The notes below the pieces were generated by a model. That model did no database searches. It saw nothing but the letters and a program-made list of their open reading frames with translations, and had not been told where the DNA came from. Below, one piece after another: positions 19,678 to 21,718 of a DNA stretch of 34,584 nucleotides. Origin of the DNA: a virus. Lineage: Duplodnaviria > Heunggongvirae > Uroviricota > Caudoviricetes. Each line of letters starts with the position of its first letter. The stretch's first letter is position 1. The translations under genes and the position numbers were made by a program. The stretch is taken from IMG/VR virus record IMGVR_UViG_2734482772_000010; one strand, written 5' to 3'.

Positions 19678-20003
19678 TATTGACCTCCGGTATTGCGGTA
19701 CTGCTGTACCACTTCCAGTTTGTTGTAGAGCGCGTCCAGTTTGGCCTCAATGACCGTCTGGCCACGGATATAATCCTCGCGACGGACATAATTCAGCGGT
19801 AAATCCGCTTTAAATCGCATCAATTCTTTTTCCAGCTCGCCCCAACTGGAGGCGGACTGTTGCAGGGCCTGTTCAAGGGAGGCGAAGCGTGCAGCCTGGC
19901 GTTCCTCCGCTTTACTGAACAGCCATTTGGCCATACCGCCGACAAAGCTCATGAAGGTGAGCAGAAAGCCCACCACCGTCCAGAATTCAACCTGCAGTGT
20001 CAT
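19677..20003 (-). CDS. small membrane protein of lysis cassette (Mu gp25 position)
   Basis: 108-aa ORF with one N-terminal hydrophobic segment (FWTVVGFLLTFMSFVGGMAKWLF); ATGA overlap with i-spanin stop. Confidence 0.5.
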   Translation of the reverse strand: MTLQVEFWTVVGFLLTFMSFVGGMAKWLFSKAEERQAARFASLEQALQQSASSWGELEKELMRFKADLPLNYVRREDYIRGQTVIEAKLDALYNKLEVVQQYRNTGGQ

Positions 20004-20611
20004 TTCTGTAATCCTTCCCGTTCATCCAGCAGCGCGTTTATCTGGTTTCGCCAGCGACGACATTGCCCTGCGTTGTCGATGAGGTTGGCGAGAACGTCAC
20101 GCTGGGAGACACCCGAATCGCGTAACCGGGTATCAGCGGTTTCAGGTTGCCCGGTCGCTGTGCCAGAGCGGGTGCCAGCGGCGGCAACTGAGTCTGAATG
20201 ACCGGTGTCGACGGATGCGTTGTCGTATCCGAGTGCGGCGTTGTACTGGCGCACGAAACCGCGAGTAAACACGCACTCAATGGGATGGCTCTTACCTTTT
20301 TCATCAATCCAGCGCTGTGTGACATCGTTAATTTGCCCCTGTAGTTGTTTGTTCTGGTCCTCCAGTTGAGCAATCTGCTCAAGATAACCAGCTTCAGCCC
20401 GTTGCCCGGCGGCTACCTGCTCCTGATAACGCTCAGACCATGCGCGCAGCGCCGCCACCTCACTCCGGGCCTGTTCTGCCCGGTATCCGTCAAAATCCGC
20501 CTGCAGGCGGCTGAGCGCCGCCTGACCGTCAGCGGAGGCCCGGTCGTGGCCTGTGCTGTATCCCAGCCACCAGATCGCCAGCAGGAAGGCGTTCAGGAGA
20601 ATGGCCAGCAT
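20000..20611 (-). CDS. i-spanin (Rz-like)
   Basis: ORF-track ORF 20000..20755 trimmed to internal ATG (MLAILLNAFLLAIWWLGYS...): N-terminal transmembrane segment then coiled-coil region; sits downstream of endolysin. Confidence 0.6.
   Translation of the reverse strand: MLAILLNAFLLAIWWLGYSTGHDRASADGQAALSRLQADFDGYRAEQARSEVAALRAWSERYQEQVAAGQRAEAGYLEQIAQLEDQNKQLQGQINDVTQRWIDEKGKSHPIECVFTRGFVRQYNAALGYDNASVDTGHSDSVAAAGTRSGTATGQPETADTRLRDSGVSQRDVLANLIDNAGQCRRWRNQINALLDEREGLQK
20038..20304 (-). CDS. o-spanin (Rz1-like lipoprotein), embedded in i-spanin gene
   Basis: +1-frame ORF wholly inside the i-spanin gene; MKKVRAIPLSACLLAVSC signal with lipobox-like AVSC, followed by Pro/Thr/Ser-rich region. 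Confidence 0.55.
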   Translation of the reverse strand: MKKVRAIPLSACLLAVSCASTTPHSDTTTHPSTPVIQTQLPPLAPALAQRPGNLKPLIPGYAIRVSPSVTFSPTSSTTQGNVVAGETR

Positions 20612-20639
20612 AATGACCCGCCACGGCAGCGACCGTAAC

Positions 20640-21365
20640 TTACGTACCCACACAGCTTGCCCCTCCCCATGAGAGATAACGCGGGGCAAGCGTGAACAGG
20701 ATGCGCCGGGGATAATGACGGTTCTCCCGCCAGCTGGCAGCATTGCGTCCGGCATTCACCGTGGCGACATGTCCGAACCAGCGGGTACGGTCCAGCCCTT
20801 TCTGTGATGCAAGTTGCCTGTCCCGCTGTACCCAGCCAAGACCCCCGTTATAGCCCGACAGCGTCATGGCCATACGCTCGCAGTCACTGGCGGCGCTGAT
20901 GCGCTGCCACAGCCAGCGGTCATAACTGACCAGCGCCCGGATAGCCCATGCCGGATTAAACGGCTCTCGACTGCTCAGCGCCGGCATCAACTGGCTTATC
21001 CAGTCGGCAGTGGCAGGCATAAACTGCGCCAGTCCCTGAGCCCCCACCGGCGAGATCGCATCAGGTCGCCAGCCGCTTTCCTGATGCAGTTGCGCAGCGA
21101 AATCAGCCACCGGCGCAGACAGTCCCCATTCAAGGCGGGCATTACGGATCACATCATCGCGATACTGCAGGGCAGCCCGCGGGGGCTGTGCTGCGGATGC
21201 CTGACTGAAAAAGCCGCCACACCAGAGCAGCCAGGCAATCACCAGGTTGCCAGCAAGCTGCCACCAGAAGCTGTATTTATCGTTACGTGGTTCGCCGTGT
21301 CTGATGGCGGTTACGCCCAGAGCAAAGGCGAACAGAATAATGAGGGTGATTTGAGGCCAGTTCAT
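20640..21365 (-). CDS. endolysin, lytic transglycosylase with N-terminal signal-anchor (SAR-type)
   Basis: SLT-domain signature HQESGWRPDAISPVGAQGLAQFMPATA; N-terminus MNWPQITLIILFAFALGVTAI is weakly hydrophobic; start ATG right after holin-like gene stop. Confidence 0.75.
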   Translation of the reverse strand: MNWPQITLIILFAFALGVTAIRHGEPRNDKYSFWWQLAGNLVIAWLLWCGGFFSQASAAQPPRAALQYRDDVIRNARLEWGLSAPVADFAAQLHQESGWRPDAISPVGAQGLAQFMPATADWISQLMPALSSREPFNPAWAIRALVSYDRWLWQRISAASDCERMAMTLSGYNGGLGWVQRDRQLASQKGLDRTRWFGHVATVNAGRNAASWRENRHYPRRILFTLAPRYLSWGGASCVGT

Positions 21366-21367
21366 GG

Positions 21368-21718
21368 TCACAGCCCTGTTGCCACAGCCAGACAGACTGC
21401 TGCAACAATCAGTGCGCGGCGGATTAACGCAGCAGAAAACACCAGGTGCAGGCCGGTCTGCACAGGGAAACGCCCTTCAGCCATCAGCCTGTTGTCATGT
21501 TTCAGGTACTGACCGGGACGGGCTTTGGGGAAGAGCGAACGGTCAAGCCAGTAACCCAGCACTGCTGCCAGCGTGATGAGTGCCAGCTTGTAGATCACAA
21601 CAGGCAACTGCTGTGGCGAGACCAGAGCGATGGTACCCAGCAACAGCACTGAGGTCAGTAGCCATCCGCTGAGGCGAGGTTTTTTAACAGGGGGAATGAA
21701 TTTTTTCAGGTTTTTCAT
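21368..21718 (-). CDS. holin-like membrane protein (first gene of late arm)
   Basis: ORF-track ORF 21368..21751 trimmed to ATG at 21718 preceded by AAGGAGA; three predicted hydrophobic segments. Confidence 0.5.
   Translation of the reverse strand: MKNLKKFIPPVKKPRLSGWLLTSVLLLGTIALVSPQQLPVVIYKLALITLAAVLGYWLDRSLFPKARPGQYLKHDNRLMAEGRFPVQTGLHLVFSAALIRRALIVAAVCLAVATGL

Follow-up and report, generated by a model that had tools for sequence, protein, structure and literature searches.

The window analysed here is a 34,584 nt stretch of DNA from IMG/VR virus record IMGVR_UViG_2734482772_000010 (Caudoviricetes). On its minus strand, at 21718–20000, it carries four tightly coupled genes for a holin, an SLT lytic transglycosylase (the endolysin), an Rz-like inner-membrane spanin (i-spanin) and a nested outer-membrane spanin (o-spanin). 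The whole block, including a coupled fifth gene at 20003–19677, is most probably the late lysis cassette of a BcepMu/B3-type transposable (Mu-like) Escherichia coli prophage, a reading to which we assign a probability of about 85 %. The cassette is an ordinary one of known type. On the basis of cross-genus conservation and a dual-coding signature, which settle the matter, the nested o-spanin is clearly a real gene, and it represents an annotation gap rather than new biology. A sequence-only reading had placed a holin, an SLT transglycosylase and an embedded spanin pair at 20000–21718, and all four open reading frames (ORFs) were recovered at these positions, with family matches far beyond chance (holin against PF13272, 1.3e-40; endolysin against PF01464, 1.6e-14; i-spanin against phrog_1403, 6.6e-89) as well as synteny, conservation and the dual-coding pattern. 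That reading halted at 20000 and so missed the translationally coupled fifth gene.

The holin gene runs from ATG 21718 to TGA 21368 (116 aa), and the endolysin gene from ATG 21365, 2 nt past the holin stop, to TAA 20640 (241 aa). The i-spanin gene (GTG 20653 to TGA 20000, 217 aa) overlaps the endolysin gene by 14 nt, wholly contains the o-spanin gene in its +1 frame (ATG 20304 to TAA 20038, 88 aa; an alternative ATG at 20325 would give 95 aa), and meets the fifth gene (108 aa) in an ATGA overlap at its stop. Directly 3' of the cassette lie Mu gp26-, gp27- and gp28-like packaging genes, recognized by Pfam and PHROG matches, and the block was therefore taken to be the late lysis module of a Mu-like element.

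The closest known systems are the cassettes of BcepMu and Burkholderia phage phiE255 (Bcepmuvirus), in which a holin (gp21), an SLT endolysin (gp22), an Rz (gp23) and an embedded Rz1 (gp24) are followed by a helical protein with a transmembrane domain (TMD). Gene order and families are the same in phiE255, with identities of 53 % for the holin (gp51), about 62 % for the SLT domain, 27 % for the i-spanin and 48 % for the downstream protein. The i-spanin motifs CVFT.GF and SGV..D.LA are conserved and the o-spanin motif PP.L..RP…LTPGY is shared. The endolysins of phiE255 and BcepMu-like phages differ in beginning with a single signal-peptide-like segment (MRVLIAF…AA, followed by QVP) without the two-TMD module described below, and the phiE255 o-spanin keeps a mature-region Cys that the window o-spanin lacks. 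In Pseudomonas phage B3 (Beetrevirus), ORF24–ORF28 encode a holin of the same Pfam family, an endolysin with the fused two-TMD module, GGFF and AxA motifs, an Rz-like i-spanin 34 % identical to that of the window with a +1-frame o-spanin, and an ORF28 product 42 % identical to the 108-aa protein. The differences are that the B3 o-spanin frame, by the present reading, continues 7 nt beyond the end of Rz, that the B3 holin is shorter (98 aa) and matches just the first half of the Pfam model, and that B3-like phages carry an extra 70-aa ORF between endolysin and i-spanin (B3 ORF26, L005 2103–2315; Fc22 gp24, L007 2103–2315). This extra ORF had no Pfam match and was absent from the lineage of the window. 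Kongari et al. 2018 list both B3, JBD25, JBD18 and JBD67 and, separately, BcepMu and phiE255 as families of embedded two-component spanins (PMC6139136).

The o-spanin ORF spans 0.53–0.94 of the i-spanin length. Its product begins with a predicted signal peptide, MKKVRAIPLSACLLAVS, with a short basic n-region and a hydrophobic core, followed by the lipobox AVSC with Cys18 (codon 20253–20251) as the acylation candidate and then ASTTP…; the +2 residue is Ala, so no Asp retention signal is present, and lipid modification is predicted. The mature protein would comprise 71 aa, 15 % of them Pro and 44 % Pro, Ser or Thr. LSAC (Cys12) was rejected as the lipobox, its h-region being too short and alignments with B3, Fc22 and phiE255 placing the acylated Cys at position 18.

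Conservation was assessed from a scan of one genome per species, which returned 52 loci encoding i-spanin relatives, 51 of them full-length, ranging over Enterobacterales, Pseudomonas, Burkholderia and Cupriavidus. Of the 51 full-length loci, 43 had an ORF in the +1 frame that encodes a signal peptide and lipobox, as did B3, Fc22 and phiE255, and the motif PP.L..RPG...L(T/I)P(G/S/N)Y was shared even where the i-spanins were just ~30 % identical. The lipobox Cys was conserved in all intact relatives, and both o-spanin ATGs were kept with it in those intact enterobacterial cassettes of other genera that were examined. The o-spanin matched no model in PHROG, Pfam or NCBIfam.

Dual coding was evaluated as mean pairwise diversity at third codon positions across 12 enterobacterial cassettes from different genera. 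Third-position diversity in the i-spanin frame was 0.093 within the overlap versus 0.382 in the non-overlapping part of the gene, and 0.21–0.23 in the holin, the endolysin and two downstream genes. The most variable site within the overlap was position 1 of the i-spanin frame, which is the wobble position of the o-spanin frame. This pattern is the expected signature of two overlapping frames that are both under purifying selection.

The alternative is that the +1 frame stays open by chance, the gene being GC-rich, and that the phage lacks an o-spanin. Open frames of such length do arise readily, an alternative-frame ORF of at least 88 aa having appeared in 575 of 5000 synonymous-codon shuffles (11.5 %), and the product is unrecognized by the hidden Markov model (HMM) libraries and unreported by gene callers. 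A lipoprotein-like product with signal peptide and lipobox, however, appeared in just 40 of the 5000 shuffles (0.8 %), and against chance also stand the persistence of the ORF, its ATGs and its Cys across genera, the homologues in Pseudomonas, Burkholderia and Cupriavidus beside i-spanins of ~30 % identity, the four-fold drop in host-frame synonymous diversity exactly across the ORF, and the confinement of broken copies to decayed cassettes. A chance origin is effectively refuted by this conservation. The two spanin genes thus exist and are under selection, and their function as spanins would follow by homology to the catalogued spanins of B3 and BcepMu. The +1-frame Pro-rich lipoprotein ORF that the sequence-only reading had described wholly within the i-spanin ORF is accordingly upheld by conservation and dual coding.

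A broken Cys or frame was seen only in two visibly decayed cassettes. In L015 (Ca. Erwinia dacicola) the SLT gene is truncated and the i-spanin shortened, and in L019 (Mixta mediterraneensis) the lipobox Cys is replaced by Tyr and the i-spanin is truncated. In L018 (Apirhabdus) the SLT reading frame lacks the two-TMD module. These three copies are consistent with prophage erosion in host-restricted bacteria.

The i-spanin alignment to phrog_1403 (‘Rz-like spanin’) begins at residue 35 of the long ORF, which corresponds to GTG 20653. GGGGAGGGG lies 5' of this GTG, and the GTG, the ribosome-binding site (RBS) and an LPWR motif are conserved in relatives. The start at ATG 20611, used in a 203-aa RefSeq call (L003), was rejected on this conservation and on the loss of the basic cytoplasmic tail that it entails. 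Topologies throughout were read from hydropathy and the positive-inside rule. By these measures the protein has a basic N-terminal tail, MWVRKLRSLPWR, a TMD at aa 13–32 (20617–20558) with a mean Kyte–Doolittle hydropathy (KD) of 2.36 and a helical periplasmic domain, giving the type II topology and helical or coiled-coil periplasmic part of an embedded-spanin i-component. Cys residues are found at 127, in the conserved CVFTRGF, and at 198, and the i-spanin is the only one of the pair with a periplasmic Cys available for intermolecular disulfides. Identity is 30–35 % to the Rz-like spanins of B3, JBD and Fc22 phages by tblastn and 27 % to phiE255 gp53 by alignment. For KP12 peg.278, which is 75 % identical to the window protein, coiled-coil helices were modelled with AlphaFold and the protein was judged to resemble an i-spanin rather than a unimolecular spanin (u-spanin), with its partner not found there (PMC9902359).

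The pair resembles lambda Rz/Rz1, the prototype of embedded two-component spanins, in having a Pro-rich o-spanin inside the i-spanin, in the +1 frame and from ~0.5 to ~0.94 of its length, as the last function of the cassette to act (PMC6139136). It differs in that no sequence homology to the lambda proteins was detected, in the length of the mature o-spanin (71 aa versus 40 in lambda) and in the absence from the o-spanin of a periplasmic Cys for homodimer disulfides.

The holin matched PF13272 Holin_2-3 with 138.3 bits (cut-off 27) and phrog_1528 ‘holin’ at 8.6e-54. Hydropathy indicates a basic N-terminus, two clear TMDs at approximately aa 17–35 and 38–58, and a third, C-terminal hydrophobic segment that is broken by RR. 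A small protein with two or three TMDs encoded beside the endolysin gene fits Holin_2-3, and hole formation is predicted on this basis. The RBS AAGGAG lies 7 nt 5' of the holin ATG. A dual-start holin/antiholin arrangement was considered and rejected; the upstream GTG/ATG at 21751/21748 is kept as DNA in relatives, but indels break its frame, and it is therefore regulatory rather than coding. About 50 nt 5' of the holin ATG lies the 24-nt element CACTATTAACGCTGTTTAAAATCC (21768–21791, minus strand), which includes TAAAAT and is common to the 12 enterobacterial cassettes, while the DNA farther 5' falls into three unrelated contexts among the same cassettes. On this conservation the element may serve the cassette as an activator-dependent late promoter. 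A generic sigma-70 scan gave no match at the element, and generic sigma-70 promoter and terminator scans gave counts no higher than those for shuffled sequence.

Several comparisons bear on the catalytic identity of the endolysin. PF01464 SLT covers aa 95–191 with 53.9 bits, above the gathering cut-off of 21.3, and the protein matched phrog_669 ‘endolysin’ at 2.1e-68. E96-S97, within HQESGW, is invariant in relatives and pairs in the alignment with Glu478-Ser479 of E. coli Slt70, the Glu being catalytic there, as expected of an SLT lytic transglycosylase. The domain is ~62 % identical to those of phiE255 and of B3-like Pseudomonas phages (e.g. JBD67 and H71) of the type II group, in which Chamblee et al. 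2022 place the pairs of DUF2730 and transglycosylase from Pseudomonas Mu-like siphophages such as Fc22. GTG 21371 was rejected as the endolysin start, as it is GTA in several relatives and ATG 21365 is conserved instead.

The sequence-only reading had called this protein a signal-anchor-release (SAR) endolysin behind a single weakly hydrophobic N-terminal segment. A membrane-targeted SLT enzyme was indeed found; the single weak segment was not, two hydrophobic segments being present, and SAR status is not established given this two-TMD module and the conserved AxA after it. The module occupies 21350–21207 (minus strand). TMD1 (aa 6–21, 21350–21303, ITLIILFAFALGVTAI) has a mean KD of 1.94 and a Gly/Ala/Ser/Thr (GAST) fraction of 0.32, and TMD2 (aa 33–53, 21269–21207, FWWQLAGNLVIAWLLWCGGFF), which ends in GGFF, has a KD of 1.46, a GAST fraction of 0.42 and a summed Hessa value of +3.2. 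A basic loop, RHGEPRNDK, separates the two, and the N-terminal tail has no Lys or Arg. By the positive-inside rule the loop would therefore be cytoplasmic and both ends, including the SLT domain, periplasmic, giving a predicted topology of N-out, loop-in and C-out. The inverted arrangement, with the N-terminus and SLT domain in the cytoplasm and the loop in the periplasm, would make a tethered enzyme that needs large holin holes or proteolysis to act. A hairpin of two TMDs does leave both ends on one side of the membrane, but the charge distribution (none in the tail against three in the loop, four in B3) favours loop-in, relatives swap the module for plain export signals, and a tethered cytoplasmic enzyme would be unable to reach the murein. 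We regard the inverted arrangement as highly improbable.

The module itself matched a separate protein family, with aa 3–56 of the endolysin aligning to phrog_5479, a family of 53-aa proteins, at 2.4e-13. In Pseudomonas phage Fc22 the two-TMD module is a separate 52-aa ORF, gp22, that ends in …GGFFG and a stop and lies between the holin and endolysin genes, and the Fc22 endolysin (gp23) has its own N-terminal signal, MKRLLTLGLLGLLSACQPAFA followed by TDRIP. In B3, in intact Enterobacterales relatives and in one Ectopseudomonas locus (L044), module and SLT domain form a single in-frame fusion. More broadly, the targeting segments of the SLT endolysins of relatives are diverse, including plain signal-peptide-like and lipobox-like segments and segments with one or two TMDs. 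Searching with the first 71 endolysin residues yielded nothing but pieces of this same enterobacterial protein and was uninformative on the spread of the module.

After the module, A56-S57-A58 (21192–21200, minus strand) precedes the conserved mature N-terminus QPPRAALQYR as a candidate signal peptidase I site, with predicted cleavage between A58 and A59. A56 and A58 are invariant in aligned relatives (ASA, ARA, ACA, AKA), and a small-x-small pattern stands directly before (I/V/P)P.AA.QYR in 23 of 23 relatives with an intact targeting segment, representing 16 distinct N-terminal types. The catalytic domain is likely to be exported by the host secretion machinery, independently of holin holes, and the AxA pattern speaks for processing by signal peptidase no less than for SAR release. 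The domain may be released either by signal peptidase cleavage or by a SAR-like exit of TMD2, which sequence by itself does not distinguish.

Under cleavage, the protein would be a Sec-exported precursor from which signal peptidase I, cutting behind A58, produces a soluble periplasmic SLT enzyme and a two-TMD membrane peptide of 58 aa, equivalent to Fc22 gp22, with lysis timing set by the holin-controlled membrane potential or by the small peptide rather than by tethering. The conserved AxA with a short polar c-region (SQASA) after GGFF argues for this, as do the coincidence of the predicted cut with both the end of Fc22 gp22 and the start of the conserved mature sequence, the N-termini of relatives, which at this place look like ordinary signal peptides or lipoboxes, and a predicted signal peptide in the KS10 homologue (PMC2628397). 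Against it, internal cleavage behind a second TMD is rarer than removal of an N-terminal signal peptide, and a transglycosylase secreted freely would have to be held in check in another way to prevent premature lysis. We consider cleavage a serious possibility, at somewhat less than even odds.

A true SAR endolysin would instead remain uncleaved, held by a weakly hydrophobic tether that leaves the bilayer when the holin, acting as a pinholin, depolarizes the membrane. In its favour, TMD2 adjoins the catalytic domain and is moderately hydrophobic, similar to the N-terminus of Fc22 gp23 (KD 1.54, GAST 0.42), whose type II transglycosylase group was classed as SAR by Chamblee et al. 2022 (PMC9239132), and a gene in the releasin slot follows the spanins. 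Yet TMD1 is a solid TMD that would stay as an anchor unless both helices exit, TMD2 is far more hydrophobic than the proven SAR domain of Mu gp22 (KD 1.06, GAST 0.53), and SAR function needs no such site as the canonical AxA kept in all of the relatives with an intact targeting segment. We put SAR release of this enzyme at well below even odds.

Lipobox-like N-termini (LLSAC, LTAC, LGAC, AASC, LANC) were observed a few residues before the AxA in Fc22 (L007, 2312–2941) and in L028, L037, L039 and L060. The ‘SAR’ endolysins of the Fc22 group could therefore be lipoproteins or cleaved secretory proteins. A bioRxiv paper on 57_3Lys that mentions SAR and releasin was set aside, as it concerns an unrelated siphophage.

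The fifth gene (19677–20003, minus strand) encodes a product with an N-terminal TMD at approximately aa 6–26, the basic stretch KWLFSKAEERQAAR and a helical part with an invariant YVRREDY motif. The basic residues after the TMD indicate an N-out/C-in topology, which would make the helical part cytoplasmic, and an AlphaFold model (pLDDT, the predicted local distance difference test score, 75; pTM, the predicted template modelling score, 0.31) places helices at residues 7–67 and 84–104. The product is 42 % identical to B3 ORF28 (6e-31) and 48 % identical to the 112-aa phiE255 gp54 (3e-31). Its gene is the third after the endolysin gene, directly 5' of the gp26-/gp27-like genes, which is the slot of Mu gp25 (releasin, DUF2730) and of Fc22 gp26 (DUF2730, 4.6e-9). 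When the region 200–1100 nt 3' of the i-spanin match was surveyed in the 52 loci (L009–L060), with a check by Pfam, the YVRREDY family was found in 21, DUF2730 in 24, both in none and neither in 7. Of the 45 related cassettes with either family, 21 thus have YVRREDY in place of DUF2730. The choice of slot family had no obvious tie to the endolysin targeting module, as B3 combines a fused module with YVRREDY, L044 a fused module with DUF2730, and BcepMu-like phages a plain signal with YVRREDY.

Several results weigh against the cassette reading or its parts, the first of which concern this fifth protein. No match to PF10805 was obtained even at E = 10 for the protein and 11 homologues, hhalign of its family against DUF2730 gave a probability of 1 %, and Foldseek of its AlphaFold model against BFVD returned no fold match. 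The PF13272 family is itself described as a ‘putative’ holin, and the predicted topology of the holin, N-in and without a charged C-terminal tail, differs from that of lambda S. The Ala at −3 of the o-spanin lipobox departs from the strict pattern [LVI][ASTVI][GAS]C, although it fits a PROSITE-style pattern, and the mature o-spanin lacks the Cys present in its B3, Fc22 and phiE255 homologues. All of the evidence is moreover computational.

BLASTP of the 108-aa protein likewise found nothing against Mu gp25 and only E = 0.11 against Fc22 gp26, and a UniRef DUF2730 label on two homologues of 58–61 % identity could not be reproduced. With Pfam, BLASTP, hhalign and AlphaFold/Foldseek all negative, the protein was rejected as a DUF2730 homologue, and it is therefore considered a positional and architectural analogue of releasin rather than a demonstrated member of that family. 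As a hypothesis, it is a candidate for a releasin-like or lysis-accessory role in endolysin release or lysis timing.

Two linked readings are put forward jointly as speculative and on balance unlikely. The endolysin may be a fusion ‘polyprotein’ cut after A58 into a soluble periplasmic transglycosylase and a 58-aa two-TMD peptide, the equivalent of the free-standing gene of Fc22-like phages and possibly a holin partner or antiholin. The YVRREDY family (the window gene, B3 ORF28, phiE255 gp54) may represent another class of releasin-like lysis regulator, distinct from DUF2730, that takes the place of the latter in roughly half of BcepMu/B3-type cassettes.

Comparison with Mu itself, which has a SAR endolysin (gp22), the spanins gp23/gp23.1 and the releasin gp25 (DUF2730), reveals a partial likeness. 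Shared features are the gp26-, gp27- and gp28-like genes directly next, a presumably exported and membrane-associated endolysin, and, no more than five genes 3' of the endolysin, a ~100-aa protein that has an N-out TMD and a helical domain in the cytoplasm. Mu lacks a holin, whereas the window cassette has one, and Mu gp22 is a muramidase with a single Gly-rich SAR domain. The window 108-aa protein is also not a detectable DUF2730 member, unlike its counterparts in Mu and Fc22.

Taken as a lysis pathway, late transcription would probably start at the conserved TAAAAT-containing element at 21791–21768. The PF13272 holin, from its family and position, would build up in the inner membrane, depolarize or permeabilize it, and so time lysis. 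The SLT enzyme would be exported via its own two-TMD module and freed by signal peptidase I between ASA and the following A or by a SAR-like exit of TMD2. Because the endolysin carries its own N-terminal targeting module, the catalytic domain is expected to reach the periplasm by host secretion rather than through holin holes, an expectation based on topology rules and on relatives with plain signal peptides at the same place. The enzyme would then cut glycan strands with Glu96 as catalytic acid, as its homology indicates, and the i-spanin and lipid-anchored o-spanin would bridge the periplasm and disrupt the outer membrane in the manner of lambda Rz/Rz1. The weakest step is that of the membrane-tethered 108-aa protein, which probably modulates endolysin release or lysis timing; it is suggested solely by position, architecture and mutual exclusivity with DUF2730.

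The 2.2-kb block was present at 80–99 % identity in 638 of 5426 complete E. coli genomes, and also in Escherichia phage PhiKM, Klebsiella ‘phage KP12’ clone KP12_2 and Phi06_2974 B. The near-identical E. coli phage PhiKM is filed as Bcepmuvirus. All annotated records examined contained a call for the i-spanin (‘hypothetical’, ‘lipoprotein’, ‘putative lipoprotein’ or ‘lysis system spanin subunit’), whereas none had one for the o-spanin. The sequence-only expectation that neither embedded gene would be annotated was thus half right, because the i-spanin is annotated everywhere and it is the o-spanin that is publicly missing. Its exact sequence was absent from a collection of ~15 billion proteins, and a HMMER scan of 1.84 billion cluster representatives gave 10 matches, of which the 7 that were read comprised 6 frameshift or assembly chimeras and 1 properly called o-spanin-like ORF. 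P0165, P0167, P0170 and P0171 are frameshifted assemblies or genuine frameshift variants and form nearly the sole trace of the o-spanin family in gene-call databases. In NCBIfam, neither the holin, the two spanins nor the 108-aa protein is represented by a model.

The main value of these results is a correction to annotation, the o-spanin of a very common enterobacterial Mu-like prophage lineage being missing and its i-spanin mislabelled. There are two modest leads. The endolysin has as its export module a fused version of a small membrane protein found free-standing in related phages, and the YVRREDY family trades places with DUF2730 (the releasin family) in a single slot of the cassette. This swap offers a cheap genetic handle on releasin-slot proteins in phages that, unlike Mu, have a holin.

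The region directly 5' of the holin gene, 21800–25000, is low in GC (42–50 % versus 56–60 % elsewhere), and its content differs between relatives. It looks like a variable accessory (‘moron’) region. Within it are an ORF without a family match (21811–22152, plus strand), a gene for a DUF2441 protein (22173–22754, minus strand) and one for a Dam-like DNA adenine methylase with a DPPY motif (22983–23747, plus strand).

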